Shown here: positions 16,115 to 31,026 of the stretch, one piece after another
How the letters are laid out: each line of letters opens with the position of its first letter
How positions within the stretch are numbered: the first letter of the stretch is position 1
NCBI GenBank assembly: GCA_026389055.1
Contig: JAPLIO010000165.1
Location: 1 to 32,594, forward strand
DNA: 32,594 nucleotides
Origin: Candidatus Melainabacteria bacterium
GTDB lineage: Bacteria; Cyanobacteriota; Vampirovibrionia; Vampirovibrionales; JAJTHC01
Direction: 5' to 3'
Translations under genes and position numbers: made by a program
The notes under the pieces: model-generated
What the model was told of the DNA's origin: nothing
Databases searched by the model: none
Seen by the model: only the letters and a program-made list of their open reading frames with translations

Positions 16115-18030
16115 TTAAGGGGCTAGTAATTCAGCTTTAAACGCCGTGGGCGAAGGCATGGCTATTGGAAGAGGTTCTTTAAATTGGGCATTGTATAGGT
16201 TAGCATAAGCCCCACCATCGGCTAGTAGTTGGGCGTGCGTGCCTTGTTCTACAATTTGCCCGTGTGCCATTACTACAATCATATCCGCATTCATCACGGT
16301 GGAAAGCCTGTGGGCAATAACCACCACGGTACGATTTTGCATCAGCGAATCAATCGCCTGTTGAACCACGGCTTCTGATTGGTTATCTAACGCACTGGTG
16401 GCTTCATCTAACACCACCAACGGGGTGTTTTTTAAAAACGCCCGAGCAATCGCAATCCGTTGTTTTTGCCCACCTGAAAGCAATACGCCTCGTTCACCAA
16501 CAGGGGTTTCAAGTCCTTGGGGTAGGCTGTTGACAAAATCTCGTAAATAAGCGGCATCAATTGCCTGCCAAAGTTCGGTTTCCGTGGCTTTGGGGTTGGC
16601 TAATAAAATGTTTTCCCGAATAGAGCCTACAAACATGAAGTTATCTTGAAAAACAGCACATGAAAGGCTGGCTAACGATTCTTTGGTCAATGTTTGAATG
16701 GGGTGGGCATCAAACCGAATTTCGCCTTCAACCACATCATAAAGACGCAACAATAAATGGGCTAACGTGGTTTTACCACTACCTGAAGACCCTACTAAGG
16801 CAATGGTTTTGCCTGTAGGAATCAATAAATCGATATGGTTTAGCACCATCGGTAAGTCTTCACGGTATTGGAAGCTAACATTTTGGAGTGTAATGCCTGT
16901 TTCAATGGCGTGCAACGTCGCCCCTTCGGTGGGGAATTGCAGGGTGGGCACTCTATCCATCAGTTCATAAACCCGTAATAGCCCCAGATAAGAAAGCTGC
17001 AGTTGCGTGCTCATATTTCCCAAGCTTTTAATGGGGGTATACAGTAGCACCAATGAAGTAATAAACGAGGCAAATCCGCCTGCGGTCATTTCTCCGCTTT
17101 GCAGTAAGCCTGTGCCAAACCACAACACCAAGCTAATACCCAAGCCCGAAATGCTGTGCATAATAGGGGTGATGGCTCCCTGAACCGTGGCTAAACGCAA
17201 CGCAATATGCCGAAGCCCTTTAATAGATTCTTCAAACGCTGCTAGTTTGGCATTAAACAAGTGAAACACCGCAATCACTCTGTTTCCCTGTAGGGCTTCT
17301 GTGTAATGCGAACTGAGCAACGACATATTTTGCAACGTGGTTTCACTCACTTTTTTCAGATATTTCCGAGCAAACGCCAAGGGAATGAAAATGGTACTAA
17401 GCACCAATAAGGCAACCGTTGCCAGCTTCCAAGAAATACTTAATAGCGTTAAGGAAAGCCCAATAACGGAAAATGTTCGTACCAGTGAAGACTTCAACAT
17501 ATCCGTAACGCCATTAATGGCTAAATCTACATCGCCCCCAAAGCGGGCTAAAATATCGCCCGTATTGGAACGGTCAAAATAGGCGGGTTCAAAGCTGAGC
17601 AGTTTGGCGTAGAGGTCTTTTTTAACTTGAGTATTCAAACTAACGTTTAGGTGGCAATATAGTTGAAAGCCCCTTGGGTGCACATAAAAATAACAATCCC
17701 CAGCGGAATCATCCAAGCGTTTTTCAGAATATCCACACCCGCTGGCAGAAACGAAATAACCACGCTGGTAAAGGGCTTTGTCCATAGCGGAAAGCCTTCA
17801 AACACTTGGGAAATGCTTTTATGTTCTAGTACTAAATCTAAATAAATTTTAATACCCAACGGCATCAGGGCATCAAAAATACCCACCAGCGAAGCCGCCG
17901 TCATGGAAATGATAAACATCCAGAAAATCGTTTTAAAATAAGGCCACAACCGCATATACGCCCGAATACTCTGGAAGGCGGGTTCTTTTTCGGGTTTAGC
18001 GGGCAGGGAAGCATTAGTAGGGAATGACAA
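16115..18030 (-). pseudogene. MsbA-like ABC exporter (TMD+NBD) split by a frameshift near 17650; real lesion or sequence error
   Basis: ORF 17647-18030 gives TM1-TM2 ending QGAFNYIAT*. The other frame continues LNVSLNTQVKKDLY..YFD..TGDI and has Walker A GSSGSGKT, LSGGQKQRIAIARA and LDEATSALD. Confidence 0.8.
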
Positions 18031-18094
18031 ACGATTAGTCTTTCTGAAACCTTGTAATATATATTGATAGCATAAGATAAAGTTACCGTTGACT

Positions 18095-18244
18095 CAAGAG
18101 CTTACTGAAAAAGCCTTCATTAGGCGTGCTAGCGTTGTTACTTGCGGTACTCCCTTGGTTATGTAGTTTTGGCTACACGCCCGTCAGTCCGTTCCGCGTG
18201 CCTAGCTATCTCATCCTACTGAAATCTTTTTCCGCAACCTCCTA
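18095..18244. mobile_element. RPE-1-like palindromic element (MITE-like), copy A; overlaps murG 3' end
   Basis: Imperfect 30-bp terminal inverted repeats (about 22/30) and a core GCGGTACTC...GTAG/CTAC hairpin...CGTTCCGC shared with the copies at 23628, 27486 and 28665. Confidence 0.75.
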
Positions 18245-19427
18245 AGCAATTCATTATTTTTGTGATAATTGTTTGCGTGGCTTCGGGTTTAGCTAACCGA
18301 AGGGCATGGTTTTTCATGGTGGTTAATGCTTCAGGTCGTTCGATTAACCGCTTTACTTGGCGAACCAAATTTTCCGCCGAACAAGCGGCATCTAGCAATA
18401 AAATACTCGCTCCCTCTGCTTCGCTTAGCCGAGCATTCGCTTCTTGATGATTAGCCGCTGCGTAAGGGTAAGGCACCAAAATAGAAGGCGTTCCACTTAA
18501 ATACAATTCCGAAAGGGTTAAACTGCCTGCACGGCAAACGGAAAAATCTGCTACTGCCCACAGGGCATCCATCCCATTAAAAAAGGGTTGGCAATGGTAA
18601 GCCGAAGCTATTTTTTCAGCTGTTTCAGCCTCCCACCCCGTGGTAGAGTGTGCTTGATAAAGCGATTGCGTTTCTTCCCATAATTTATCGCCACATTGAT
18701 GAATTACTTGCAAATTACAGTCTGCTATCAACTGCGGTAAAGCTTGAACCACGGCTTTGTTGAGCGTTCTAGCCCCTTGAGACCCGCCCACAATAACCAG
18801 TGTTAGCTTTTCAGCAGACCAGCCTGCTAAGCCTAATTGGTGAAAGGCTTCCGTTTTTGAAAGCGAAGTAAAATTGCCTCGCAACGGGTTGCCCGTAAAG
18901 GTATAGCGGTCTTCTGGAATGCCTAGCCCTTTGGCTCTGTTGGGGAATGCACCCGTTACCCCAGCAGCCCACCGAGCCATCAATTTATTGACTAGCCCAG
19001 GTACGACATCGGGTTCATGAATAAAATAGGGAATATGGAGTTGTTGGGCTGCCGCCAAAACAGGGGCTGCTACATAACCGCCCGTGCCAATAACTGCCGT
19101 GGCATTAAAGGCTTTTAGTTTTTGTTTGGCTTGTTTAATGGCTTGATTGAGTGCCCACAACCAGCCCAGCAACTTGAACGGATTCTTCCCCCTTGGCATA
19201 CCCCGAAACGGCACGGCTTCAAAGGGTAAGCCCGCTTCTGGCACTTTTTTAGATTCCAAACTATCCGCATTGCCAATATACAATAACGCTTCAACGTTGG
19301 GGTGATGTTTTAACGCATCTGCCAGTGCCAGTGCGGGGTAAAGGTGTCCGCCCGTGCCACCGCCTGTTAGCACAATTCGATGCGTTGAAGTAGCTTGTGA
19401 TGTTGTTTTAGGGGTTAGCGTTTCCAT
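18216..19427 (-). CDS. murG: MurG N-acetylglucosaminyltransferase
   Basis: TGGGTGGHLYPA, GTGGYVA, HEPD..PGLVN, TGNPLR, GGSQGA, CRAGSLT.SEL, HQEANA. Confidence 0.97.
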   Translation of the reverse strand: METLTPKTTSQATSTHRIVLTGGGTGGHLYPALALADALKHHPNVEALLYIGNADSLESKKVPEAGLPFEAVPFRGMPRGKNPFKLLGWLWALNQAIKQAKQKLKAFNATAVIGTGGYVAAPVLAAAQQLHIPYFIHEPDVVPGLVNKLMARWAAGVTGAFPNRAKGLGIPEDRYTFTGNPLRGNFTSLSKTEAFHQLGLAGWSAEKLTLVIVGGSQGARTLNKAVVQALPQLIADCNLQVIHQCGDKLWEETQSLYQAHSTTGWEAETAEKIASAYHCQPFFNGMDALWAVADFSVCRAGSLTLSELYLSGTPSILVPYPYAAANHQEANARLSEAEGASILLLDAACSAENLVRQVKRLIERPEALTTMKNHALRLAKPEATQTIITKIMNCLGGCGKRFQ

Positions 19428-19435
19428 TGCAGAAG

Positions 19436-20662
19436 CTAGATTCCTTTAGCGTTTTCTTGAGCCGTTAGCAGGGCTTGTTGTTCTTTGGCGGTTTGTTGGG
19501 AAATATTCATTAAAATGCCAATCATGCCCAGCGTAACCAACACGGAAGTACCCCCGTAACTAACCAATGGTAACGTAACCCCTGTTACAGGAAATAGCCC
19601 TGTAGCCACACAAATGTTAATAACTGCTTGAATAATAATGACCCAAGTTAGCCCAAAGGCTAGCAACTGACCAAACGCATTTTGGCATTGCATGGCGATA
19701 TAGAAGCCTCTAACCGCTAACCATGCGTATAGCCCTAACACTAAGCACGCCCCTACAAAGCCCATTTCTTCAGCCACAACGGCTAAGATGAAATCCGTAT
19801 GTTCAAAGGGTAAGAAATAAAGCTTTTGAATGGAATTACCAAACCCCCTGCCAAAAAATCCGCCCGAAGCAATCGCATAATAAGATTGAATGATGTTATA
19901 GCCCACGTCTTGCGGGTCTTTCCAAGGGTCTAACCAGCCTACAACCCGCTTGAGTTGATAGGGGGTATTTTGAATTTGAATCCACACAAAAATAAAGCCT
20001 AATGGTAAACCAATAGTGAAGCAGGGTAAGGCTAGCCCGCCAATAAATAACATACTTAACCAAGTAGAACCCAGCAATAGGGAAATACTCAAGTTGGGTT
20101 GTTTGAAAATTAAGCCAATCATCACCAAAACCACCAGTGAAAATTTGCCTACCAAGCCCCATTTATTTTTCAGTTGGCTTAACGCCGTTGCCATCAGCAT
20201 AACAACAGCGGGTTTGGCTAATTCAGAAGGCTGAAACTGGAAAGGCCCTAAGGGCAACCAGCGTTCACTACCATTGGTGGTTACGCCTTGGGCTAGGGTT
20301 AAAAATAACAAGCCTGAAACAATTAAGCCAAACGTCCAAGCGATGCTTTTAAGCCGTTGATACGGAAATTGAGCCATCCACCCCATCATACCGATGCCTA
20401 TAACCACAAACACCAACTGCTTTAACACTTGGCTAAAGGCATTACCACTAATCCCCAGCGAATAATTCGCACTGGCACTAAATAGGGCTAACAACCCGAA
20501 CACAATAATGCTATAAGTAACCCATAGTAGCTGAGAATCCGTCCCTTGCTTTAGTAAAAAACCCCCACTAAAGTACTGCAACAGCTTGATAACCAACGGC
20601 ATTGTACCGACTCGTTTTTTGAACGCTTTTTTAAGCCGCTTATTTTTTGCCGTGTAAGCCAT
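19436..20662 (-). CDS. ftsW: SEDS peptidoglycan glycosyltransferase FtsW
   Basis: NGSERW, FQPSELAK, GGFFGRGFG.S.QK..LP..HTDFI, EEMGFVG, PVTGVTLPLVSYGGTS; between murD and murG. ATG 20662 overlaps the murD stop (TAATG). Confidence 0.93.
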   Translation of the reverse strand: MAYTAKNKRLKKAFKKRVGTMPLVIKLLQYFSGGFLLKQGTDSQLLWVTYSIIVFGLLALFSASANYSLGISGNAFSQVLKQLVFVVIGIGMMGWMAQFPYQRLKSIAWTFGLIVSGLLFLTLAQGVTTNGSERWLPLGPFQFQPSELAKPAVVMLMATALSQLKNKWGLVGKFSLVVLVMIGLIFKQPNLSISLLLGSTWLSMLFIGGLALPCFTIGLPLGFIFVWIQIQNTPYQLKRVVGWLDPWKDPQDVGYNIIQSYYAIASGGFFGRGFGNSIQKLYFLPFEHTDFILAVVAEEMGFVGACLVLGLYAWLAVRGFYIAMQCQNAFGQLLAFGLTWVIIIQAVINICVATGLFPVTGVTLPLVSYGGTSVLVTLGMIGILMNISQQTAKEQQALLTAQENAKGI

Positions 20663-22149
20663 TAAAGAACGACCTCCGTGGGTTGGGATGATAAGGGGGT
20701 AATAGGGGCCGTTTGCCATGCCAGCACTTGCTGTTTAAAGGCGTTGCCTCTGGCTTCAAAATGCTTGAATTGGTCAAAACTAGCCGTGGCCGGGGAAAGC
20801 AACACGACTGACTCTTTAGCGGATGTTTCTAACTGGGTTAACGCCAAAGCAACGGCTTCGGGCTGGGTGGCAACACGGTGAATAGTGCCTTCAAACCCAA
20901 TGGCTGTTAAGGCTTCTTGAAAGCAAGTTTGGTCTGCCCCATTTAAAATAACGATTTGGCAGTGGCGTTTAACGGCAGATGCCCATGCTTCTAACGGCGT
21001 TCCCTTGGCTTTTCCGCCTGCAATTAAAATGACGGATTGGGCAGGGAAGCCTTCCAGTGCTTTCATGCACGCTTCAGGGTTGGTGGCTTTGGAATCATTA
21101 TAAATTTGCCAATCTGGGTGGCTGGGCAAGAAAACCCGTTCACACCGATGTGCCACGGCGGTGAATGTTTCAATGCCTGCTTGAAGTGCCGTAGCCGAAA
21201 CGCCCTGCAAATGGGCAATACCCACGGCAACCAATAAATTTTCTAAATTATGAGACCCCTTTAGCTGAAACCCCTCTACCGTGCAAAGAGGCTTCACTTG
21301 TGGGGCTTCCCGAAGCCAAACAGTGTTGCCTTCAATCCACAAGGCAGAGGTTGTTGATGCTAGCAATGGGTTTTCAGGGGTTAAGCTATAAGCCAAAACC
21401 GAAGCGGTTGTTTCCGCAATCCAACCTTTAGCAGTAGGGTCATCAGCGTTTAAAACCACCCACGGTGGGGCTAGTTTTCCCACAAACAAGGTTTTCTTAG
21501 CCTGCTCATAGGCTAGTAGCCCGCCATGCCAATCGAGATGATCAGGCGTGAAGTTGGTGAACCCCGAAGTGGCTAAGTGTGCCAAGGTATCGCTGTATTC
21601 TAGCTGGTAGGAGCTGAGCTCCATTACGGCATAGGTTGTGGGTTGTGGGTTTTCTTGTGTTAAGGCGTTTAAAACTACCGTGGCTACAGGCAACCCAATA
21701 TTCCCACAGGCAACTGAAGAAAGTCCGCCTTGTTGCAGTAGCCACTGGGTTAAGGCGGTAACGGTGGTTTTTCCATTTGTGCCAGTAATGCCCAAGCTGA
21801 TGAGTTTTTCCGAAACAATTTGTTCTAACGCCCATGAAACTTCCGAACAGACCCTAACGGTGGGCTTTTGGGCTTTTAATTGTTGAATAATAGGGGCTTT
21901 AATGGGAATACCTGGGCTAACGACGACGGTTTGGGCGTGCGTTAAGCACTGTTGCGAATGCCCACCTGTTTCCAATGTAACAGTCGGTAGTTGAGCGAAG
22001 GCATCTAGTAGTGCGGGGGCTATTTTTTCTGGTAGGTTAAATTCGCTGACCAAAATAGCGGTATAACCCAGATGGTTAGCTAGTTGTGCCACTGCCAAGC
22101 CTGAGGTGGAAGCCCCTAGAATGGTTAAGTTTTTTGAAGAGGTTGGCAT
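20662..22149 (-). CDS. murD: UDP-N-acetylmuramoyl-L-alanine--D-glutamate ligase
   Basis: VVSPGIP, GITGTNGKTT, CGNIG, ELSSYQL, DHLDWH, NDSKATN, LLSPATASFDQF..FEARG. Confidence 0.96.
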   Translation of the reverse strand: MPTSSKNLTILGASTSGLAVAQLANHLGYTAILVSEFNLPEKIAPALLDAFAQLPTVTLETGGHSQQCLTHAQTVVVSPGIPIKAPIIQQLKAQKPTVRVCSEVSWALEQIVSEKLISLGITGTNGKTTVTALTQWLLQQGGLSSVACGNIGLPVATVVLNALTQENPQPTTYAVMELSSYQLEYSDTLAHLATSGFTNFTPDHLDWHGGLLAYEQAKKTLFVGKLAPPWVVLNADDPTAKGWIAETTASVLAYSLTPENPLLASTTSALWIEGNTVWLREAPQVKPLCTVEGFQLKGSHNLENLLVAVGIAHLQGVSATALQAGIETFTAVAHRCERVFLPSHPDWQIYNDSKATNPEACMKALEGFPAQSVILIAGGKAKGTPLEAWASAVKRHCQIVILNGADQTCFQEALTAIGFEGTIHRVATQPEAVALALTQLETSAKESVVLLSPATASFDQFKHFEARGNAFKQQVLAWQTAPITPLSSQPTEVVL

Positions 22150-22353
22150 ACCAATCAGCAAGTATTTCTAGCAGGCAACAGGAGGAAAAAATGGTCATAG
22201 TGCCCTTTTATTGTAGCCTAACAAGGGTATCAAGACAAGGGAGTGCCTTATTTTTTTAGGATAGTAATTTTAGTGCTTTATGGTATCATTTTTTGGTAGA
22301 GGGTCTAGCCTAAGCGTTTCGTTCAATATTTTGGATCATAAGGAGTAGTTTTA

Positions 22354-22650
22354 ATGAAAATGATTGCAGATTTATGTGTGGTTCCTTTAGGGGTAGGTGT
22401 TTCTGTTAGTATTTATATTGCAGAATGTGAGCGGGTGTTGTTAGCCAGTGGGTTAAATCATCAATTACATGCTTATGGTACGAACATTGAGGGCGATTGG
22501 GATGCGGTAATGGCGGCGATTAAGGCTTGCCATGAGGCGGTGCATGCGATGGGGGCACCGAGAATTACCACGACGTTGAAAATGGGGACTCGGGTAGACA
22601 GAGACCAATCGATGGCAGAGAAGGTTTCCAGCGTTCAGGAAAAAATGTAG
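22354..22650 (+). CDS. MTH1187/YkoF family thiamine-binding protein
   Basis: ADLCVVPLG...SVS.YIA, HAYGTNIEGDWD.V, HAMGAPRI...K.GTR.D; AAGGAG SD. Confidence 0.9.
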   Translation: MKMIADLCVVPLGVGVSVSIYIAECERVLLASGLNHQLHAYGTNIEGDWDAVMAAIKACHEAVHAMGAPRITTTLKMGTRVDRDQSMAEKVSSVQEKM

Positions 22651-22749
22651 TTAGTTTCTTGGCGTTGTTTTATAGCATTTGGATGCCCTTGGTGTTTTTT
22701 TGCCGACCCAAGCCCATAGGGCTTTACTTTGGGGGGCTCGCGATCCCCC

Positions 22750-23601
22750 CTAATCCACCTTCACCACGGCGTACGGGGCGGGTTTACTGCAGATGCCCAC
22801 AATGGCATCATGCACGGCTAGGCACCCATTACTACCCACAATATCTATCTTCCGCTGGCTAATATCTAAGGGCTTACCAAACCAATCGGTTACACGCCCA
22901 CCCGCCTCGGTAATCAACAAAACCGCTGCCGCAATATCCCAAGGCGAAAGCCGAAGCTCCCAAAAGCCATCCAGCCTCCCCATCGCTGTATAAGCCAAAT
23001 CCAACGCAGCTGAACCTAACCTGCGGACACCATGGCACTGCTCCATAAACCGCAAGAAATACCCCATATTATCGTGCGAAGTCGTCTTGCTATCGTTGGG
23101 GAACCCTGTAGCTAATAACGATTGCCCTAAACTTTTAATGCTACTAACCCGCAACGCTACCCCATTGAGGTTCGCCCCTTCGCCCTGAATGGCGGTAAAT
23201 AATTCGTTGGTAATGGGGTTATAAACCACGGCTACCACGGGTTGACCGTCTACCATATAGGCAATGCTAACGGCACATTGCGGAAAGGCGTGGGCGAAGT
23301 TGGTGGTGCCATCAATGGGGTCTATCACCCAAGTGTGGCTTAAATCAATGGCGTGGGTTTCTTGAAAACTTTCTTCGGTTAAGAATAAATCTTCGGGGAA
23401 GGCTTCTTGTAGATGGTCTAAAATCAGAAAATCGCAGGCTTTATCGTAGGCGGTTACTAAATCTCGTTGGGTGGCTTTGGTTTCTACGGCACAGGCTTTA
23501 GAAGGGCAAACGAAGCGTTCGTGGAATTGAAGCCCTGCTAATTTGGCAACGGTAACGGCTACTTGCAACCGATGTTGCAGGGTTTGTTTAGAAAGGCTCA
23601 T
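22750..23601 (-). CDS. suhB: Inositol monophosphatase family protein (SuhB-like)
   Basis: DLVT..D, TEES, WVIDPIDGTTNFAH, RRLGSAALDLAY.A.GR.DGFWE, PWDIAA. AGAGGA SD favours ATG 23601. Confidence 0.9.
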   Translation of the reverse strand: MSLSKQTLQHRLQVAVTVAKLAGLQFHERFVCPSKACAVETKATQRDLVTAYDKACDFLILDHLQEAFPEDLFLTEESFQETHAIDLSHTWVIDPIDGTTNFAHAFPQCAVSIAYMVDGQPVVAVVYNPITNELFTAIQGEGANLNGVALRVSSIKSLGQSLLATGFPNDSKTTSHDNMGYFLRFMEQCHGVRRLGSAALDLAYTAMGRLDGFWELRLSPWDIAAAVLLITEAGGRVTDWFGKPLDISQRKIDIVGSNGCLAVHDAIVGICSKPAPYAVVKVD

Positions 23602-23627
23602 TATCATCAATCCTCTACCTTAAAAAA

Positions 23628-23773
23628 TAGACCTCTTGCATGACTCGATATCTGGGGCATCTTTTTTGTCATTTACGGTACTCCCTCAGGTTAAGTAGTT
23701 AGGCTACATGCCCATCGGTGCGTTCCGCATTCCTCAAATCTGCACCCACCTATCAAGTCATGCAAGAGATTTA
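23628..23773. mobile_element. RPE-1-like palindromic element, copy B (146 bp)
   Basis: TAGACCTCTTGCATGACTCGATA ... TATCAAGTCATGCAAGAGATTTA terminal inverted repeats; homologous to the reverse complement of 27486-27631. Confidence 0.88.
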
Positions 23774-23787
23774 TTGTAACACGGCAT

Positions 23788-23825
23788 AAAAAAAACCTGT
23801 AATTGAAAAAACCTTCAACTACAGG
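23788..23825 (-). terminator. Intrinsic terminator on the minus strand
   Basis: Minus strand CCTGTAGTTGAA-GGTTTT-TTCAATTACAGG followed by 8 T. Confidence 0.75.
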
Positions 23826-24039
23826 GGGGACATAGGCTATAGGGTGTGTGTTTCAAGGGAAAATTAAACAATTTCTCTCTTTTTAGGTTGAGGGGTAATG
23901 GGGTAGTTGTCCCTCAACAGGTTAATAAAAACAATCTATCTACCTAAATTGCGTTTGTAACTGAATTGTTACAACGCTAAATGAAAACAACCCCCTCTGG
24001 CTTCTATTTGAAAACCAAAGGAGGTTAATCTATATGAAC

Positions 24040-24110
24040 TGTCATTCCGAGCGAAGTCGAGGAATCTCCTTGCCGTCTAGGGAGATGTTTCGACTACGCT
24101 CAACATGACA
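24040..24110. repeat. TGTCA/CGTC-type palindromic REP-like element
   Basis: TGTCATTCCGAGCGAAGTCGAGGAATCTCC ... GGAGATGTTTCGACTACGCTCAACATGACA, a long imperfect inverted repeat of the widespread GTCAT..GAGCGAAG..GAATCT type. Confidence 0.8.
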
Positions 24111-24125
24111 ATATCATTTAAGTTT

Positions 24126-24665
24126 TTAGTAGAACATTAAATCGCCACCACGCTCAAACGCACGCATTTCTTTCCAAGGCGTATGGTCTGGTGTTACGGG
24201 GCGTTTTGTTGGTACAAAGCTTGCCATTGGTTTTAATTTGCCAATATGCCGAGGCATTACAATACTGCTAGCCGTTGTGTTGTAAACCTGCCGTGTGTGG
24301 AAAGTAGTTGCTCTGCTATTATGGCTAGGGGTTGGTGCCATACCATTACCATGGTCAGCTGCCCACTGGCTATCATGTCCTTTGGTGTATAAATCCGGCG
24401 TTTCTTCCATGTAAGTGGTTTTGGCTTCATCTACCATTTGACGAAATGGCTTACCTGAAGTGGTTTTTGATGGAGTGCTGGCTTCTTCACCTTCCATTGC
24501 GGTAGGTGCTTCGGCTTCCCATGGGGCTTGGCTCATTAAGGTATAGGCTGGTTGGGTTTCTTCAGCTTGGGCAACCATGGTGCCAACGTTTACGGAACAG
24601 ATTAGTGCTAAAACAAGTGCAGAGAGGAAATGAGATTTTTTCACGAAATAAGGTGTCCTTTTCAT
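24126..24665 (-). CDS. Hypothetical exported protein
   Basis: Basic N-terminus, hydrophobic stretch and AQA signal-peptidase site; low-complexity mature part. Confidence 0.65.
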   Translation of the reverse strand: MKRTPYFVKKSHFLSALVLALICSVNVGTMVAQAEETQPAYTLMSQAPWEAEAPTAMEGEEASTPSKTTSGKPFRQMVDEAKTTYMEETPDLYTKGHDSQWAADHGNGMAPTPSHNSRATTFHTRQVYNTTASSIVMPRHIGKLKPMASFVPTKRPVTPDHTPWKEMRAFERGGDLMFY

Positions 24666-24765
24666 CCATTCAGTAACGAAGATTCAGTCAATTAGTCAGA
24701 CCATTTGATAGTCTAACTGTCGATAGGTATCCTTCGTTTCTTTAATGAAAGATGAAAAAGTTTCG

Positions 24766-25935
24766 TTAAACGGCAGAAACTGTTACAGTTTGTAACAAAC
24801 ACTGATGAATCGTTTGCAAAGCCCGTGGGTGCATAGCAAGGGTAACATGGTCTATCGCCCAATCATCTAACAAATGGTTAAACACCATGCCATTAGGCAG
24901 TTGAGGCTTTAAAAATGCTTTGCGAAACGGCACTAAAAAATCCCATGTGGTAACAATACTATGGTAAACAACCCCAGCCCCTTGTTTTACTAAGTTACCA
25001 TTCCACCGAATCAGTTCATCAAACACTTTGGGAATGGGTTTCCCAACATTTCTGGGAATCCAGCCATTTTTGAGGATTTCAACGCCATCGGCACCCAAGA
25101 AACCTGAACCTAAGGCAATCAGCGTTTTAATGGGCGGATTCTTGCCTGCATTTTGTAGCGTGTTAATTAAATGTTGCGTAACAATACCACCCAAAGAATG
25201 CCCGATAACGTGGACTTGAGGCACATTATGCCGTTGCATAATATCTGCTAGTTGGGTATAAACCGCCTCGGCGGATTCTGCTACTTCAGATAAACCTTGA
25301 TTAGGCAGGGTTGCCACATAAACGGGATAGCCTAGCTGAGAAAAATAATCCACCATGGCTCTAAAAAAGACGGGCGGTGTATTTAAACCCGGTACAATTA
25401 AGATAGGTAGCATGGGTTCTTTTTGCCCATCGGTAGCCTGAATGATAGCAGGAACCGATGAGGCTAGGTTCGTTTCTTCAGCAACGGGATGTTCTGCTGA
25501 TTTTGCCCCTTTATCTTCTCGTTCAAAATAGGTTTCTTCTACGGCTTTGGCAATGGTCGGCACGCTTTTGGCAACAAAAGCCCCTCTGCGGTTGAGGGCG
25601 TAATAATCTTGTCTGTTCTGTGGGGAAAGCGTGAACATGCGTAACAGAGCCACCCCATAGGCAATGCACAACGCCCACCATTGGGGAATCCGTCGGCGTT
25701 TGTTGGGGGGTACCCAATCGCTATTCATGTAATCTGTAAAATTATTGGCTTCTTGTTTGATGAGTTTGCGATGAATGGGCGAAAGTTTCATAATTGCCAT
25801 AGCAAACATACTGCCTGCGGTGGAATACATCCAGTTTTTAGGCTGGGCAGGTAGTTTTTTCCATGTTAGGCAAGTTAATCGCCAAATCGTGCTGAAAGAC
25901 GATGTAAAAAATGAAAAAATAGTCGATAGACTCAA
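24766..25935 (-). CDS. Alpha/beta hydrolase (lipase/esterase-like) with N-terminal extension
   Basis: PILIVPGL oxyanion segment, VHVIGHSLGG nucleophile elbow, D(FLVP) and (D)H candidates for the triad. Start uncertain. Confidence 0.8.
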   Translation of the reverse strand: MSLSTIFSFFTSSFSTIWRLTCLTWKKLPAQPKNWMYSTAGSMFAMAIMKLSPIHRKLIKQEANNFTDYMNSDWVPPNKRRRIPQWWALCIAYGVALLRMFTLSPQNRQDYYALNRRGAFVAKSVPTIAKAVEETYFEREDKGAKSAEHPVAEETNLASSVPAIIQATDGQKEPMLPILIVPGLNTPPVFFRAMVDYFSQLGYPVYVATLPNQGLSEVAESAEAVYTQLADIMQRHNVPQVHVIGHSLGGIVTQHLINTLQNAGKNPPIKTLIALGSGFLGADGVEILKNGWIPRNVGKPIPKVFDELIRWNGNLVKQGAGVVYHSIVTTWDFLVPFRKAFLKPQLPNGMVFNHLLDDWAIDHVTLAMHPRALQTIHQCLLQTVTVSAV

Positions 25936-26083
25936 GATATCACCAAGGCTTTGGCCACATTATGGTAACGAAAGTGCCACACTGTACTATAACACGGTTT
26001 GGGGAAAATTTATCAAATTTCAATAAAAATTTACGTTTATCTGCGGATTTCATATCAACCCAAAGATTGAATAGCGTATTGAA

Positions 26084-26151
26084 TGTAGGGGCGTGATTTA
26101 TCACGTCCGCCCCTCAATCCCCAAACGGATGCGATAAATCGCACCCCTACA
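26084..26151. repeat. GTAG-type REP doublet (REPIN-like), copy 1
   Basis: TGTAGGGGCGTGATTTATCACGTCC-spacer-GGATGCGATAAATCGCACCCCTACA: two inverted GTAG-tagged hairpins; 64/68 identical to the reverse complement of 31689-31756. Confidence 0.9.
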
Positions 26152-26193
26152 ATTTTAGACTCAATAATATTTTGAATGGATTTTACAACCCCA

Positions 26194-27102
26194 TTACTGC
26201 TTTTTAACAATGCTCATGGCACTAGAAATTAGGCTACTAATGTTGCTTAAATCCGCTGGTACAATCAGTGTGGTGCCTTCTTTGGCTAAGTTTGAAAATG
26301 CGGCAACGTATTGTTCGGCTACCTTCAATTCCACTGCTTTCGCCCCACCATCGGTTGCGATTGCTTTCGCCACGGTGCTAATCGCTTCGGCTGTAGCGGT
26401 TGCCACTACTCGGATTGATTCCGCATCACCCATCGCTTTGTTAATAACGGCTTGCTTTTTCCCTTCAGATTCGGCAATGGCAGCTTGCCGCTCCCCGTTG
26501 GCTCGGTTAATTTGTTGTTGCAAATCGCCTTCTGATTGAGCGATTTTTGCCCGTTTTTCTCGTTCGGCGGTTAATTGCAATTGCATGGTTTTCAGCACGA
26601 TATCGGGCGGTGTAATATCTTTTACTTCATAGCGAATTAGCTTGACGCCCCACTCTTCAGACGCTTCATCTAGCACGCTAACTACGGCAAAATTGATGGT
26701 TTGACGTTCTTCTAATAGGCGGTCTAGTTCTCGTTTGCCCACTTCTGAACGGAGTGTAGTTTTGGCTAATTGCTCAATGGCGAACCGAAAATCAGAGGTT
26801 CCGTAGGAAGCCAGCTTGGGGTCGGTAATTTTGTAGTAAAGAATCCCGTCAATGTGGACTTGGGTGTTGTCTTTGGTGATGCACACTTGGGGTTGCACGT
26901 CCATGGGTATTTCTTTTAGGCTATGCACGTAGGCAATTTTATCGACGAAGGGAATGACGAAGTGCAGCCCTGCGTGCAGGGTTTTTTGGTACATCCCGAA
27001 GCGTTCAATCACGTAGACGGTTTGTTGTGGCACAATTTTCACAATGCTACTTAGCACCCATACTGCCACCCCTGTGGGTATAACCCAAGAAAAATCAGCC
27101 AT
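26194..27102 (-). CDS. SPFH/band 7 stomatin-like protein (QmcA/SLP-2 type)
   Basis: IVPQQ..YVIERFG.Y..TL.AGLHF.IPFVDKIAY, ITKDN, LRSEVGK..LD, WGVKL.RYEVKDI, AEREKRA. AAGGAG SD before ATG 27102. Confidence 0.93.
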   Translation of the reverse strand: MADFSWVIPTGVAVWVLSSIVKIVPQQTVYVIERFGMYQKTLHAGLHFVIPFVDKIAYVHSLKEIPMDVQPQVCITKDNTQVHIDGILYYKITDPKLASYGTSDFRFAIEQLAKTTLRSEVGKRELDRLLEERQTINFAVVSVLDEASEEWGVKLIRYEVKDITPPDIVLKTMQLQLTAEREKRAKIAQSEGDLQQQINRANGERQAAIAESEGKKQAVINKAMGDAESIRVVATATAEAISTVAKAIATDGGAKAVELKVAEQYVAAFSNLAKEGTTLIVPADLSNISSLISSAMSIVKKQ

Positions 27103-27214
27103 TACAAACAAGCTCCTTATTTTTAAAAACGATAATTTAACAGATATAATTTATTGCCATGATACCATATTTTATAAAATTATGGAAAGATCTTCTAATT
27201 GTTCGCATTTTATA

Positions 27215-27243
27215 TTGACAAAGCTCGCTTTAATCGCTATACT
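27215..27243 (+). promoter_or_regulatory. Near-consensus sigma70 promoter; predicted leaderless transcript of the toxin gene
   Basis: TTGACA (27215-27220), 17-bp spacer, TATACT (27238-27243); ATG begins 7 nt later at 27250 with no SD. Confidence 0.8.
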
Positions 27244-27249
27244 ATCAAT

Positions 27250-27674
27250 ATGATTAAAGTATTATTTACAAACACCGCTATTAAACAACTAACCAAAATA
27301 CCGCCACTCATTGCCAAAAAAGCGTTGGCTTGGGCAGCAGAGGTAGAGAACAAGGGGCTACTGGCTTCAAGGCTTATTAAAGGAAAGCATGACGAACCCT
27401 TGAAAGGCAAACGCCAAGGACAACGCTCCGTAAGACTAAATAAACAATGGCGATTGATTTATAGCGAAATAACGCTTGAAATAATTAGACCTGTTACATG
27501 GCTCGATAGGTGGGTGCAGATTCTAGGAATGAGGAACGGAGAACCGCAGGTGTACACTTTAGTACATGAGGATTCGAGTACCGCAAATGACAACGAAGAT
27601 GCCCCAGATATCGAGTCATGTAACAGGTCTAGTGAAATACAGGAGATTATCCCCATGATTATAGAACCCGCTAA
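27250..27674 (+). pseudogene. HigB/RelE-like toxin interrupted by an in-frame RPE-like insertion and a 1-nt frameshift at its 3' end
   Basis: HDEPLKGKRQGQRSVRLNKQWRLIY is nearly identical to the paralogue at 30760-31026. The expected end PHDYRTR* lies in the -1 frame after the C4 run at 27651-27654. Confidence 0.75.
27486..27631. mobile_element. RPE-1-like palindromic element, copy C, inserted in frame in the toxin gene
   Basis: TAGACCTGTTACATGGCTCGATA ... TATCGAGTCATGTAACAGGTCTA (22/23 inverted repeat), TA at both ends, net 144 bp. Translates to RPVTWL...VYTLVHEDSST...CNRS. Confidence 0.92.
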
Positions 27675-28014
27675 ATTAGATAGCCTCATGGAACAATACC
27701 CTGAAGGCGTACCCGCTGAAGCATTATTTGAGGCGATTGGTTATCAACACCAAGAAGCTTCTTTGGGTAGTATGATGAGGGAATGGCGACAATGTGAGGG
27801 CTGGACTTTAACTGAAACGGCTCAAAAGCTGGGTATTTCGAAGCAATTTTTATCGGAATATGAACGAGGTCATAAATTACCCTCTATCAAAAAAGTAATT
27901 GAAATAGCCACAACCTTTGAAGTAGACCCTGCTTCTTGGCTGAAATTTCGGCTACAAGATGAATTACGCATGAATGGGTATGATGGCACGTTGGATATTT
28001 TTAAAATCGCCTAA
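27655..28014 (+). CDS. HigA-like XRE-family HTH antitoxin
   Basis: SLGSMMREWR...TLTETAQKLGISKQFLSEYERG.KLPS. Its ATG lies inside the toxin CAT-G codon, as in the paralogous pair. Confidence 0.85.
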   Translation: MIIEPAKLDSLMEQYPEGVPAEALFEAIGYQHQEASLGSMMREWRQCEGWTLTETAQKLGISKQFLSEYERGHKLPSIKKVIEIATTFEVDPASWLKFRLQDELRMNGYDGTLDIFKIA

Positions 28015-28021
28015 AAACCCC

Positions 28022-28050
28022 TTGCACACACGCCGTGTTTCACTTACTGT
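28022..28050 (+). promoter_or_regulatory. Candidate rplS promoter
   Basis: TTGCAC-N17-TACTGT, about 180 nt upstream of rplS. Confidence 0.45.
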
Positions 28051-28234
28051 ATTAAAGAGACATTAGGGTTGCTTTGCCTTCTTTTATTAGAAGCACTGCA
28101 CTATTAACCCACCAGCCAGTCGGTTAATAGACCACTATTATTATTTTGACCGTGCGCTACTGGAACTGCCCTGCCCTGTATCACGCTCCGCTTTTACTTT
28201 GTAAAAGTGTCAATTCAGAAAAGAGATACCCCTC

Positions 28235-28654
28235 ATGATGAGTCATCATCCGTTAATTGAAGAAATTAACCAAGAATTCCTAAAAACAGACCGCCCCAGC
28301 ATTTTCCCTGGCGATTCTGTGCGTGTAAACGTATTGATTCGTGAAGGCAGCAAAGAGCGGGTTCAAGCCTTTGAAGGCGTGGTTTTGGCTAAACGTGGCG
28401 GTGGTATTAACACCACGTTTGTTGTGCGGAAAGTATTCCAAGGCGTTAGCGTAGAACGCTCGTTCTTCTTGCATTCACCTAAAGTGGAAAGCATCAAAAT
28501 TATTCGCCGTGGTAAAGTGCGTCGTGCAAAACTTTACTTCTTGCGTGAACGGATTGGTAAATCTGCCCGTATTCGTGAAAAAACCACGGGTTACGCAACC
28601 ATCAATAAATTTGGCAACATTTTGTTGGCGAACCCTACTACGCCTAAAAAGTAG
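28235..28654 (+). CDS. rplS: 50S ribosomal protein L19
   Basis: PGDSVRV...EG.KERVQAFEGVV, TFVVRK...GVSVER.F..HSP, RRGKVRRAKLYFLR. Confidence 0.98.
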   Translation: MMSHHPLIEEINQEFLKTDRPSIFPGDSVRVNVLIREGSKERVQAFEGVVLAKRGGGINTTFVVRKVFQGVSVERSFFLHSPKVESIKIIRRGKVRRAKLYFLRERIGKSARIREKTTGYATINKFGNILLANPTTPKK

Positions 28655-28664
28655 ACTTCTTTTT

Positions 28665-28810
28665 AAGAAAGCTCTGCAAAAGTCTCCATAAGGCGTGCTA
28701 ACTTCGTTATTGTGGTACTCATTTCGGTTATTTACTATTTGTAAACGCCCTTATTGCGTTCCTCATGCCTCGTTATCCCATCCTTCTGAAACCTTTTGCA
28801 AAACTTTCTA
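28665..28810. mobile_element. RPE-1-like palindromic element, copy D (146 bp), between rplS and rbgA
   Basis: AGAAAGCTCTGCAAAAG ... CTTTTGCAAAACTTTCT inverted ends; interior aligns with copy A (AGGCGTGCTA...GGTACTC...GGTTAT...ACGCCC...CGTTCC...TGCCT...TATC.CATCCT). Confidence 0.8.
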
Positions 28811-28890
28811 AACCCATTAAAAGTGCGGGTGGATTATTCAATCTCTTCCCGCACTTTTTTTCACTCCCGAAAAAGGGGCTTTTCTTTACA

Positions 28891-29793
28891 ATGATGATGA
28901 TGACACAACAATTGAGCGAAACCAAAACCCACGCCTCGCATAGCGTACAGTGGTACCCAGGGCATATCGCCAAGTGGGACAAACAACTGCTCGAAGCCCT
29001 CAAAAAAGTCGATGTAGTCATTGAGGTGCTAGACGCCCGCCTACCGCTGCTTAGCAGACATCCCGAACTCAATTTACGCCTAGACCGCAAACCCATTATT
29101 ACCGTCCTCAACAAATCCGAATTAGCAGACCCTGAAGCCACAGAAGCGTGGCAACAGTGGTTCAAACGCTTTGGCTGCGGACCTACCGTGCTGTTTGACG
29201 CCCACCACGGAGCGAAATATCGCAATAAATTGATTCAAGCTATTGCCAGTGCAGGAGCGGAAGCCGTGGAAAAATGGCAAGCTAAGGGGCTAAAAGCCCG
29301 CCCCGTGCGAGTGATGGTTGTCGGCATGCCCAACGTGGGTAAATCTAGCATTATTAACTGTTTGGTCGGGCTGAAAAAGGTCAAAACGGGGCATAAAGCT
29401 GGCGTAACCCGCACCTCCCAATGGATTCGGATTCATCCGCAAGTCGATTTACTCGATAGCCCGGGCATCATCCCCCCCAAGCTGGAAAGCGATGAACAGG
29501 GGCATTGGCTGGCACTGGTTAGCTCCATTGGCGAAGCGGCGTTTGATGAAGAACGCGTCGGTTTATTCATTTTGCAAGCACTCCAACAACGGTATCAAGC
29601 CTTGCTACAAGCCCATTTCGGCTTCACGACTGAAAGCCTCAACACCCCATGGACGCTGGAACAAATTGGCGTGCAAAAATGCCTGCTAAAACACGGCGGT
29701 GTGCCAGATGCTAAACGGGCAGCCCAAGTGCTTTTGCGGGATGTTCGGCAAGGCAAAATAGGACGGCTCACCTTTGAAGCACCCCCTGCCTAA
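28891..29793 (+). CDS. rbgA: Ribosome biogenesis GTPase YlqF/RbgA
   Basis: VQWYPGH, EVLDARLP, LNKSEL, GMPNVGKSSIIN, AGVTR, LLDSPGI. Start placed at the ATG run 28891-28902 because the upstream ORF extension derives from the repeat. Confidence 0.95.
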   Translation: MMMMTQQLSETKTHASHSVQWYPGHIAKWDKQLLEALKKVDVVIEVLDARLPLLSRHPELNLRLDRKPIITVLNKSELADPEATEAWQQWFKRFGCGPTVLFDAHHGAKYRNKLIQAIASAGAEAVEKWQAKGLKARPVRVMVVGMPNVGKSSIINCLVGLKKVKTGHKAGVTRTSQWIRIHPQVDLLDSPGIIPPKLESDEQGHWLALVSSIGEAAFDEERVGLFILQALQQRYQALLQAHFGFTTESLNTPWTLEQIGVQKCLLKHGGVPDAKRAAQVLLRDVRQGKIGRLTFEAPPA

Positions 29794-30433
29794 CCACCCC
29801 CTGTTTGAATTCGACGAAGCCCACTGCCCACAAGGCTTGTGCCTGTTTGGGGTAGATGAAGTGGGGCGGGGTAGCCTAATGGGACCCGTAACGGCAGGGG
29901 CTTTTTCGTGGAAGTGCCTTGAACAAGCCACACCTGAAGACCTACATCTGCTGGGCTTTTTGAACGATTCTAAAAAACTTTCGCCCGCCAAACGAGCCGC
30001 CTTAGTGCCTGTTTTGCACCGTTTGGGGTGGTGGGGTATTGGCGAAGCGAGTATCGAAGAAATTGCGGCGTTAAACATTCAGCAGGCTTCTTTTTTGGCG
30101 GGTTGGCGAGCTATACAAGCACTGGAAACCCAACAGGGGCGGGCTATTTCGCCTAGCACTCATTTTTTGTTGATGGATGGTCGGTTGAAATTGCCGCAGT
30201 ACCCCCTAAACGCCCAATTGGCGGTGGTTGGGGGCGATGCTCAATCTGCGGTGGTGGCGGGGGCTTCTATTTTAGCGAAAGAATACAGGGATGCTTGGGT
30301 AAAGCAGGTGGCACAGGGCTTTTCGGGGTATGGGTGGGAACGCAATATGGGTTATGCCACGGCGGCACATCGGCTAGCCATTCAGCAATTGGGCGTTACC
30401 CCCCTCCACCGCCCCAGCTATAAACTGGGGTAA
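29774..30433 (+). CDS. rnhB: Ribonuclease HII
   Basis: GVDEVGRG.L.GPV, LNDSKKLS, DG, GD..S..VAGASILAK..RD, GY.T..H, HRPSY. Confidence 0.96.
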   Translation: MKHPLPNHPLFEFDEAHCPQGLCLFGVDEVGRGSLMGPVTAGAFSWKCLEQATPEDLHLLGFLNDSKKLSPAKRAALVPVLHRLGWWGIGEASIEEIAALNIQQASFLAGWRAIQALETQQGRAISPSTHFLLMDGRLKLPQYPLNAQLAVVGGDAQSAVVAGASILAKEYRDAWVKQVAQGFSGYGWERNMGYATAAHRLAIQQLGVTPLHRPSYKLG

Positions 30434-30446
30434 ATCCCGTTTCTAA

Positions 30447-30770: not shown

Positions 30771-31026
30771 GAGGGGTTAATTCCTCCAATTCTATGAGGG
30801 TTTTGCTGTGTTCACAATAAATAAGACGCCATTGTTGATTGAGCCGAACGCTTCGTTGCCCGAGGCGTTTGCCTTTCAGCGGTTCATCGTGAAAACTAGG
30901 GCGTTTTCGGGTTTCGGCAAGCCCCAATAATTCCACTGCTGTAGCCCATTCTTGAAATTTGGTAACAACCTGCTTGGGTGCTTTGGTAATATCTTTTTTA
31001 AATTGCTTGGTTGTTAAAAAATCCAA
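30760..31026 (-). CDS. HigB/RelE-superfamily toxin (intact)
   Basis: 88 aa, FHDEPLKGKR.GQRSVRLN.QWRLIY...PHAY; AGGAGG SD before TTG; toxin precedes the HTH gene. Confidence 0.87.
   Translation of the reverse strand: MDFLTTKQFKKDITKAPKQVVTKFQEWATAVELLGLAETRKRPSFHDEPLKGKRLGQRSVRLNQQWRLIYCEHSKTLIELEELTPHAY

Follow-up and report, generated by a model that had tools for sequence, protein, structure and literature searches.

RPEs are the textbook example of selfish DNA whose insertions keep the reading frame of essential genes. IS5-family elements have MITE relatives in eukaryotes (PIF/Harbinger-Tourist), and target duplications take the form ANT in the ISL2 group and TNA in the IS1031 group. Vampirovibrio is an algal predator, and its lineage is the non-photosynthetic sister group of the cyanobacteria. 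The RPE of interest here, RPE-1 (Ogata et al., 2000, 2002, as cited in PMC2229807 and PMC10969869), is listed with a terminal inverted repeat of 12 bp (PMC2229807, Table 1). In the accessible portion of PMC2229807, RPEs are called Rickettsia specific and their target duplication is given as unknown, and the accessible portions of PMC2229807 and PMC10969869 name no RPE-mobilizing enzyme. The curated model for the RPE1 domain is NCBIfam TIGR01045.

Four related palindromic copies lie within 11 kb of the window (the whole 32,594-nucleotide stretch of Candidatus Melainabacteria DNA that was analyzed). We consider it likely that they represent high-copy miniature inverted-repeat elements of the RPE-1 family, living in a freshwater bacterium of the Vampirovibrio lineage, with one subfamily (type 2) moved by an IS5-family enzyme. 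All four were found where the initial annotation had placed them and could be aligned end to end; their limits were refined from target duplications and empty sites. Copy A (18098..18241, minus strand) is 144 bp long; its core is of the variant kind and its termini are type 2 (GAGCTTACTGAAAAAG ... CTTTTTCCGCAACCTC). Copy B (23629..23772, minus strand) is likewise 144 bp long and has a variant core; its termini are canonical RPE-1 ones, of which the right end is mutated. Copy C (27487..27630) lies on the plus strand, opposite in orientation to the other three; it is also 144 bp and combines an RPE-1-type core with canonical RPE-1 termini (AGACCTGTTACA ... TGTAACAGGTCT). Copy D (28667..28808, minus strand) is 142 bp; it too has a variant core, and its termini are type 3 (GAAAGCTCTGCAAAAG ... 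CTTTTGCAAAACTTTC). The length of 146 bp reported earlier includes one flanking base on either side of the 144-bp element. Copies B and C end in AGACC...GGTCT and go with a 3-bp ANT target duplication, whereas A and D have other termini. The flanks are TCAA/CTAA at copy A, an imperfect 4-bp duplication; AAT (23626–23628) and ATT (23773–23775) at copy B; ATT (27484–27486) and AGT (27631–27633) at copy C; and TAA on both sides of copy D (28664–28666 and 28809–28811). A whole-length alignment of the four copies had 48 invariant columns and a mean column identity of 69%, and the compensatory changes previously pointed out in the arms and central hairpin are visible in alignments of the copies.

The link to RPE-1, which the initial annotation had proposed, was borne out by a shared 22-mer, by Rickettsia copies scored with TIGR01045, and by a DNA profile. 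The 22-mer, taken from copy C, matched at least 116 stretches in public genomes; among the matches listed, 97 were labeled Rickettsia, Tisiphia, Rickettsiaceae, or Rickettsiales and one Vampirovibrio. Two Rickettsia copies that contain it scored 80.6 and 74.1 bits on TIGR01045 (cutoff 30) and are therefore bona fide RPE1. A Rickettsiales-derived DNA profile, built from 25 non-Vampirovibrio copies that all lack the search 22-mer, produced 74 matches in the genome (best E = 7.9e-16, positions 2–149 of 150) and matched copy C at E = 1.1e-10 and copy B at E = 0.009 (positions 3–150 of 150); copies A and D are tied to RPE-1 only indirectly, via the genome's own family profile. On the covariance model R1, copy C scored 123.9 bits. 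The protein-level check proposed earlier turned out differently: the window copies fail TIGR01045, which the Rickettsia controls pass. Translated copy C gave no match at E ≤ 10, and the whole genome gave none over the cutoff, with the best hit (17 bits, E = 0.015) falling within the family copy at C150:4863-5002. Copy C had no blastn match among PLSDB plasmids, and a word-indexed protein search with its peptide, a query too short to be informative, returned eight short unnamed proteins, none from Rickettsia. At the DNA level, the 22-mer matches and the profile support assignment of the four window copies to the RPE-1 family.

Iterated nhmmer searches detected 148 non-overlapping loci in the 2.2-Mb genome, so the resemblance among the four copies is not due to chance. 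At 105 of these loci, at least 125 of the 144 model positions are covered, and 32 loci touch contig ends in what is a fragmented assembly (254 contigs). Across the genome the density is approximately one copy per 15 kb, which the four copies in 11 kb exceed only modestly. Three kinds of termini occur in the family, type 1 (canonical RPE-1), type 2, and type 3. Of the 40 type-1 elements defined by their termini in this genome, 19 are exactly 144 bp. The genome is congeneric with a MAG labeled Vampirovibrio sp. (G001, three contigs), which also carries the family; this supports the cyanobacteria-related host suggested at the outset and contradicts a restriction of RPE-1 to Rickettsia. Convergence, or contamination of the assembly by rickettsial contigs, has nothing in its favor beyond the fragmentation of the assembly, and its probability is negligible. 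Profile matches extend end to end with E values down to 8e-16, the copies sit between genes syntenic with the congener at 75%–93% identity, and the same family is present in the three-contig congener; the profile matches and the synteny already contradict such an origin.

Copies A and D have clean empty syntenic sites in the congener, the flank at D differing by one T in a T-run, and copy C lies within an 824-bp segment that is missing there. In the reverse case, L142 and C130 form a clean filled/empty pair in which the empty site keeps one 3-bp repeat. An exact 3-bp flanking repeat was present at 30 of 44 type-1 copies in the genome (shuffle mean 9.2, maximum 17) and at 77 of 178 copies from other taxa (shuffle mean 21.6, maximum 32); for type-2 copies, an exact 4-bp repeat was found at 15 of 42 (shuffle mean 1.0, maximum 4). 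Empty sites of the kind that the initial annotation proposed to look for were found in the congener, but with a duplication of 3 bp (ANT) or 4 bp instead of TA. A TA duplication of the IS630 type was considered for the canonical ends and rejected: the variable flanking base is itself directly repeated, and the L142/C130 pair fits 3 bp. Because the duplication is 3 bp and not TA, the 44 DDE_3 matches in the congener are not an obvious partner. The copies show terminal inverted repeats, target duplication, presence/absence polymorphism, and no transposase gene, for which 140–144 bp leaves no room; all of these are MITE traits. Empty sites, target duplications, and the three kinds of termini support the earlier proposal that the family is mobile but non-autonomous and comprises two or more subfamilies. 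The family was also described as old; it is not only that, and has been active recently.

It is very unlikely that the canonical-end copies, B and C among them, are immobile relics of one old invasion and that the differences from the congener are deletions. Such a history would account for the divergence of 5%–20% between type-1 copies and copy C, for the 19 unrelated bases that replace 146 bp at the syntenic site of copy B in place of a clean empty site, and for the lack of a partner enzyme found for the canonical ends. It is at odds with the clean reciprocal L142/C130 pair, where precisely one 3-bp repeat remains, and with an in-frame insertion in clpB that is missing from a 95%-identical ortholog. 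One RNA-library contig that omits exactly 147 nt at copy C points weakly in the same direction, and insertion is more likely than exact loss, at many sites, of the element together with one repeat.

Among the 105 near-complete copies, 77 are open over their whole length and 14 lie within frames of at least 150 amino acids, whose hosts include a ClpB-like AAA+ protein, MutS, and an RNA methyltransferase (Methyltrans_RNA). The 95%-identical ClpB ortholog of the congener is without residues 749–794. In the window, copy A supplies the final codons and stop of a murG-like ORF (18216–19427, minus strand; Glyco_tran_28), and copy C, which is open in frame, joins a HigB-like ORF to an HTH antitoxin-like ORF in a single frame (27199–28014). 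Element plus duplication amounts to 147 or 144 nt and most copies have an open frame; therefore, insertions within genes are tolerated as in-frame peptides. The behavior known for RPEs recurs outside Rickettsia in clpB and mutS. With exact ends and the 3-bp ANT duplication now given, a 144-bp element and its duplication make 147 nt, which explains in-frame insertion by itself.

The whole-length pairing of the copies could instead suggest that they encode a family of structured non-coding RNAs, or belong to such genes, with pairing maintained for RNA function. Compared with 200 shuffles each, the folds of copies B, C, and D were stable (z = −5.7, −7.9, and −4.1, with 0 of 200 shuffles as good in each case), although that of copy A was marginal (z = −1.7, 13 of 200 as good). 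In a 50-pair structure, 84.4% of paired cells were complementary compared with 69.8% in shuffles and 34%–41% when the structure was slid, and 41 of the 50 pairs had changes on both sides; the structure was taken from the same alignment, which biases these statistics toward it. RNAalifold predicted just eight pairs on the MAFFT alignment. A 3:1 excess of G:T over A:C cells was an artifact of choosing pairs with G:U allowed and disappeared under strand-symmetric selection, where the counts were 133 versus 118 and 238 versus 248. Covariation of the hairpin without strand bias indicates symmetry of DNA, not RNA. Strong covarying pairing, the stable folds, and the overlap of RNA-library contigs with the region are what an RNA family would have to offer, and we regard it as highly improbable. 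Neither strand is favored, Rfam 15 gave no match at the gathering score in the window and none at E ≤ 10 for 27380–27740 (copy C), and the copies occur in both orientations and within ORFs, with target duplications and empty sites. The RNA-library contigs do not show transcription either: the sequencing runs were available as contigs, which span copy A (X5, X10, and X11) and are interrupted within copies B, C, and D, as happens at repeats, so gaps and RNA-library depth are uninformative on expression.

The initial annotation saw no mobilizing enzyme in the window; elsewhere in the genome, contig C19 carries a candidate for the type-2 subfamily. At C19:1180-2346, type-2 termini flank a 311-aa ORF that scores 233.5 bits on NF033581 (cutoff 140) and 75.8 bits on PF01609. 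This resident IS is 1158 bp long and belongs to the IS5 family (IS5_4 type). It shares approximately 17–18 bp of terminal repeat with the type-2 copies, both make a 4-bp duplication, and the termini of copy A are related to its terminal repeats. The congener has 59 PF01609 matches and approximately 45 copies of the IS; the four of these that were examined measure 1157–1159 bp, all with exact 4-bp duplications. Shared ends and duplication length make the C19 IS5 DDE transposase the most likely enzyme to mobilize the type-2 subfamily in trans. The termini of copy D resemble those of an approximately 840-bp IS5_3-type IS of the congener (L155), which is suggestive for type 3. A transposase gene between the same ends, as the initial annotation proposed to seek, was found for type 2 and not for the canonical ends. 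Seven candidate intervals of 260–6000 bp in the genome yielded a transposase only at the type-2 site on C19; among 46 + 47 canonical termini in the congener, the largest pair spacing was 491 bp, with no autonomous element; and 11 intervals from other taxa held none. In one Tisiphia and one Holosporales genome, the IS5_3-type ISs carry other ends and TA/CTAG-type flanks. Five other RPE-1-rich genomes, including a Rickettsia symbiont and Legionella, had no IS5_4-type transposase (NF033581) over the cutoff, so IS5 cannot be the general mobilizer of RPE-1; NF033579 likewise gave no match over its cutoff in other RPE-rich genomes.

REP/RAYT and IS200/IS605-type elements are not known to make target duplications. 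This bears on the reading that a non-DDE mechanism, such as an HUH/Y1 transposase (REP/RAYT or IS200/IS605 style) or hairpin-templated copying, moves or copies the elements in the form of single-stranded hairpins, with the resemblance of some ends to IS5 repeats secondary. Several features lend themselves to it: the hairpin and its compensatory changes take in the whole element and not just its ends, the core is conserved and asymmetric and resembles a protein-recognized hairpin tip, optional mini-hairpin modules occupy fixed internal positions, and neither an autonomous partner for the canonical ends nor a common IS5 transposase among RPE-1-rich genomes was found. We nevertheless consider such a route unlikely given the consistent 3- and 4-bp target duplications, the identity of type-2 ends and duplication length with those of the IS5 element, and the yield of PF01797, one partial match each in the genome (27.4 bits) and the congener (21.2 bits), at positions 56–121. 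Each element is a near-perfect hairpin palindrome of 140–144 bp, with terminal inverted repeats of approximately 12–18 bp, arms free to change in sequence provided that their two halves remain complementary, and a core of approximately 52 bp that is asymmetric and conserved across phyla. In the transposition model that we favor, insertion is by cut-or-copy transposition, with a 3-bp duplication (consensus A-N-T) at canonical RPE-1 ends; type-2 elements, with a 4-bp duplication and ends equal to those of the 1158-bp IS, would be moved in trans by its transposase.

Multi-copy matches elsewhere included at least 106 in Holosporales, at least 27 in Legionella resiliens, and at least 12 in Amoebophilaceae, and a Rickettsia symbiont genome carries at least 135 copies. 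Within the host phylum the family is rare: 2 of 151 sampled genomes had matches, one being the genome studied here and the other having a single match. In a FastTree phylogeny of 53 copies, type-1 copies of the Vampirovibrio-related genus form one clade; the tree covers only approximately 150 columns and carries no support test, so no donor was drawn from it. The family probably reached the genus horizontally. RPE-1 spans phyla, following lifestyle (association with eukaryotic cells) and not lineage. More tentatively, and with less than even confidence, the RPE-1 core, together with its paired arms, may act as a portable passenger module. It would pass horizontally between bacteria that live with eukaryotic cells or prey on them (Rickettsiales, Holosporales, Legionellales, Amoebophilaceae, and Vampirovibrio relatives) and would stay mobile by exchanging its terminal repeats for those of whichever IS is active in the new host. 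The core itself would then promote transposition or tolerance as a cis-acting DNA hairpin, and this would account for its conservation across phyla despite changing ends and arms. Such a module would also explain RPE movement and the lack of any one transposase tied to these elements. In this genus, an active IS5-family element and the RPE-1 cores that lie between its ends, with the same 4-bp duplication, make up the first concrete and testable candidate for an enzyme-substrate pair of an RPE-type element. Searches of the open literature turned up no report of cross-phylum RPE-1, the ANT duplication, the IS5 pairing, or in-frame insertion outside Rickettsia.

Among known systems, cyanobacterial MITEs such as Nezha, reportedly described by Zhou et al. 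in 2008, resemble the copies in coming from the same broad phylum. REP/BIME sequences with RAYT and IS200/IS605 elements are, in the accessible part of PMC3733652, likewise short, palindromic, abundant, and sometimes within genes. The present copies differ in having terminal inverted repeats and target duplications, in being four to five times longer, and in lacking a Y1 transposase nearby. The IS5 family and its MITE derivatives resemble the type-2 copies, whose ends and 4-bp duplication equal those of the resident IS, and the 3-bp duplications of types 1 and 3 are within the range given for Harbinger/IS5 relatives in the accessible part of PMC12730594. However, the interior of the copies is RPE-1 core and arms, not a deletion derivative of the IS, and this interior is common to elements with other ends. 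RPE-1 itself agrees in length (144 bp), termini (AGACCTCTTGCA...TGCAAGAGGTCT), a core including the common 22-mer, whole-length hairpin, high copy number, open frames, and in-frame insertion in housekeeping genes. The family described here differs from it in having a host of the Cyanobacteriota/Melainabacteria group instead of Rickettsia, arms between core and termini that are unrelated in sequence, translations that fail TIGR01045, and subfamilies that combine a variant core with foreign IS5-type termini.

The four palindromic elements of the initial annotation were all found where it had placed them, with copy A at 18098–18241, B at 23629–23772, C at 27487–27630, and D at 28667–28808; copy C is in reverse orientation relative to the other three. 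They can be aligned end to end, with 48 invariant columns and a mean column identity of 69%. Folding was assessed against dinucleotide shuffles and none of 200 was as good for B (z −5.7), C (z −7.9), or D (z −4.1); folding of copy A was marginal (z −1.7, equaled by 13 of 200 shuffles). An iterated nhmmer search seeded with the four copies identified 148 non-overlapping loci in the source genome, G000 (2,210,858 bases in 254 contigs, 44.4% G+C, 94.9% complete; the window is contig C74), and 105 of these are near full (125 or more of the 144 model positions). In all, 32 loci touch contig ends, which fits a repeat on which short-read assemblies break. The multi-copy palindromic family is real, far beyond chance, and the earlier reading of it was essentially right. 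Two other repeats occur in the window. A separate palindromic repeat of ~100 bp, with termini around TGTAGGGGCG, lies at 26052–26151 and 31688–31763 and gave 54 BLAST rows in G000; the copy at 26052–26151 is an insertion found only in G000 when compared with G001, the nearest genome. A G-run-rich repeat of ~250 bp at 31792–32030 gave 162 BLAST rows on ~60 contigs of G000 and also adjoins a family copy in G001 (L133, 746–992).

At least two subfamilies had been proposed, and three kinds of ends and two kinds of core were seen. Canonical RPE-1 ends (type-1) occur on copies C and B, with an RPE-1-type core in C and a variant core in B; A and D also have the variant core, with IS5-like type-2 ends in A (the left one degenerate) and a third kind, type-3, in D. 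In a rough motif count over the 148 loci, canonical ends accompanied the RPE-1-type core at 40 loci and the variant core at 9, type-2 ends accompanied the variant core at 43 and the RPE-1-type core at 2, and 8 were assigned by type-3 ends only, with the core unsplit; the remainder held 6 ambiguous loci and 15 with no recognizable end. These mixed combinations show that ends and cores recombine. One family copy sits in the center of another in G001 (L144, C1:1411642–1412985, at 534–817), and copy-into-copy insertion of this kind could bring such swaps about. Type-1 copies that are longer, at 171–240 bp, contain up to three optional modules (34, 35, and 27 nt), each consisting of one or two mini-hairpins and each at a fixed place inside the element (in G000, C63:345, C41:23221, C10:2726, C224:6355, C137:23837, C96:725, C97:16586, and C65:3449).

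Covarying arms, with structure conserved over sequence, were borne out in a structural alignment of 53 copies (18 of this genus, and 35 of other taxa that had been clustered below 85% identity), in which compensatory changes in the hairpin arms are plain. RNAalifold returned 8 pairs only. A whole-length hairpin of 50 pairs, derived from the alignment on which it was later tested and from related sequences, so that independence is overstated, had 84.4% of cells paired, compared with 69.8% in shuffles, none of which (of 500) was as high, and with 33.8–41.4% when the partners were slid. Changes on both sides were present at 41 of the 50 pairs, in 379 cells compared with 138.7 in shuffles. G:T at first seemed to exceed A:C (309 vs. 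104), but the excess disappeared under symmetric pair choice (133 vs. 118; 238 vs. 248), which favored neither strand, and the copies had no match in Rfam. The absence of a strand preference and of an Rfam match shows that the conserved feature is the inverted-repeat symmetry of the DNA rather than an RNA of one strand. Across phyla, the 12-bp ends and an asymmetric core of ~52 bp are conserved, and the intervening arms are constrained only to pair.

The proposal of a non-autonomous mobile family was upheld by empty sites, a reciprocal case, and target duplications. When 16000–31000 of the window was aligned with G001, a congener assembled in 3 contigs, the sites syntenic to A and D were cleanly empty, the site syntenic to B held 19 unrelated bases in place of 146 bp, and copy C was within an 824-bp segment (27188–28012) missing from the syntenic site. 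In the reverse case, the G000 site that corresponds to G001 copy L142, on contig C130, is cleanly empty and keeps one copy of a 3-bp repeat. A further copy, in MutS (L149 in G001, C18 in G000), is common to both genomes. The canonical element is A-GACC...GGTC-T, 144 bp long, with a direct 3-bp repeat outside it (consensus A-N-T) that was exact for 30 of 44 G000 copies (shuffle mean 9.2, maximum 17) and for 77 of 178 copies from other taxa (shuffle mean 21.6, maximum 32). Type-2 elements are 140 bp, with termini GAGGTTACGGAAAAAG... and an abutting 4-bp repeat that was exact in 15 of 42 copies (shuffle mean 1.0, maximum 4); copy D has TAA on either side. IS630 elements duplicate a TA target, and such a duplication is ruled out for canonical ends by the directly repeated variable base and the L142/C130 empty site. 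Element plus duplication comes to 147 nt for canonical and 144 nt for type-2 copies, each divisible by three. In a related population, one contig of an RNA-library run joins 27485 to 27633, an exact 147-nt skip at copy C, with weak support (shorter side of 22 letters, likeness threshold of 90).

A nuclease or transposase gene flanked by the family ends, as had been suggested, was found for type-2 ends and not for canonical ends. An IS5-family element of 1167 bp in G000 (L152, C19:1180–2346) has type-2 termini at both ends, and its 311-aa open reading frame (ORF) matched NF033581, an IS5-family model of NCBIfam, at 233.5 bits (cut-off 140), Pfam DDE_Tnp_1 at 75.8 bits, and DUF772 at 63.8 bits. 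It was assembled once in G000 and has ~45 full matches in G001, where most of the 59 DDE_Tnp_1 matches are 336-aa open frames of the same element. The four G001 copies examined (L127, L159, L161, and L164) are 1157–1159 bp long, start GAAGTTACGGAA(A/T)AAGGG, and all have an exact 4-bp duplication. A MITE and its autonomous partner classically have identical ends and an identical duplication length, and type-2 copies and the IS5 element share both. No autonomous element with canonical ends was found in G001, where canonical termini numbered 46 + 47 (1 + 0 for a control pattern) and the widest pair was 491 bp apart; 11 intervals between canonical termini in other taxa contained ordinary genes and no partner enzyme. 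In Tisiphia and Holosporales, the ends of IS5_3-type elements are different and their flanks are of the TA/CTAG type, and an IS5_4-type transposase scored over the cut-off in none of five RPE-1-rich genomes. The IS5 transposase is thus a good candidate mobilizer, though solely of the type-2 subfamily within this genus. The ends of an IS5_3-type element of ~840 bp in G001 (L155) resemble the third class seen in copy D. G001 is very rich in insertion sequences, with 44 DDE_3 (IS630-type) transposase matches in two size classes besides IS5, and one of its IS5 copies adjoins the region syntenic to the window.

Among the 105 near-full copies, one or more frames are open from end to end in 77, and 14 copies are embedded in stop-to-stop frames of 150 aa or longer. 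A domain scan of six of these 14 showed an insertion within the AAA_2 domain of a ClpB-like AAA+ protein (C191, L181), giving 225 residues for a 166-position profile; one between domains III/IV and V of MutS (C18, L182); and one that cuts an RNA methyltransferase domain in two (C217, L185). The others are amine-oxidase-like (C145, L184), mannosidase-like (C234, L183), and one without a family. In the ClpB ortholog of G001, which shares 95% identity, residues 749–794 are missing. In the window, the 824-bp segment that G001 lacks holds copy C in frame between two ORFs, a HigB-like toxin (22.3 bits, short of the 27-bit Pfam cut-off) and an HTH_3 antitoxin-like ORF, with a single open frame at 27199–28014, and copy A contributes the final codons and stop of a murG-like ORF.

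The RPE-1 family is rare around these two genomes. BLAST with copy C matched 5 of 41 relatives, G000 included, with many matches in G000 and G001 and one to three partial ones in three further genomes. The covariance model of the family, R1, matched 2 of 151 genomes in an even sample of the phylum (20 candidates scored per genome): G000 and a 6.1-Mb genome with a single GC-rich copy (L176, G070:C118, 1501–1628; 42.6 bits). Lake and freshwater metagenomes from 12 studies contain near-identical DNA. At position 20645, contigs of lake runs X5 and X10 have a 27-nt insertion behind, in the overlap of an FtsW-like and a Mur-ligase ORF.

The resemblance to Rickettsia RPE-1 that had been proposed stood at the DNA level and failed at the curated protein model. 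One genome per species was searched with a 22-mer of copy C in which a single purine position was left degenerate, and the 22-mer occurred in at least 116 stretches. By record title, the matches listed comprised 97 in Rickettsia, Tisiphia, Rickettsiaceae, or Rickettsiales; nine in one Holosporales MAG; two each in one Pseudomonadota MAG and a MAG labeled uncultured Yersinia; and one each in Legionella resiliens and in Alphaproteobacteria, Coxiellaceae, Legionellales, Amoebophilaceae, and "Vampirovibrio sp." MAGs, the last a lineage that NCBI places in the Cyanobacteriota/Melainabacteria group. The Yersinia-labeled MAG has full RPE-1-like copies (L056 and L088), and its label looks unlikely for such an element. 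Two translated Rickettsia copies scored 80.6 and 74.1 bits on the RPE1 protein model TIGR01045, covering all 48 positions, which indicates that the elements bearing the 22-mer are genuine RPE-1. Against circularity, a DNA profile was built from 25 full copies at these loci that themselves lack the 22-mer, with the Vampirovibrio locus excluded. This Rickettsiales-side profile gave 74 matches in G000 at E ≤ 10 (best 7.9e-16, positions 2–149 of 150), including copy C (1.1e-10) and copy B (0.009, positions 3–150), and no direct match to A or D. TIGR01045 gave nothing over its 30-bit cut-off in G000; the sole match was weak (17 bits, E 0.015), inside the family copy at C150:4863–5002, and the copy C open frame had no NCBIfam or Pfam match at E ≤ 10. 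B and C thus belong to the RPE-1 family, at the DNA level only, and A and D are divergent relatives tied to them via intermediates within G000.

R1 counts in other RPE-1-rich genomes, which are lower bounds with at most 150 candidates scored, were at least 135 in a Rickettsia symbiont, 106 in a 1.0-Mb Holosporales MAG, 66 in a Tisiphia genome, 27 in L. resiliens, and 12 in an Amoebophilaceae MAG. Such a patchy distribution over phyla, in bacteria living with eukaryotic cells, points to probable horizontal transfer of the family. RPEs number 526 in R. bellii (PMC1458961) and 728 in R. felis (PMC1166351). PMC2229807 calls them Rickettsia specific, with a 12-bp terminal repeat and the target duplication entered as "?", and a 2024 review describes them in Rickettsia only (PMC10969869). 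No paper found in the open literature assigns these elements to Legionellales, Holosporales, Amoebophilaceae, or the Vampirovibrio lineage, gives a target duplication for them, or connects them with IS5.

These elements are a known kind in an unexpected phylum. Their ends and duplications are newly defined, their termini-swapped variants point to a testable transposase, and in-frame invasion of genes, a hallmark of RPEs, here recurs outside Rickettsia. Compared with Rickettsia RPE-1 copies, copy C is equal in length, 12-bp ends, and core, whereas its arms are unrelated.
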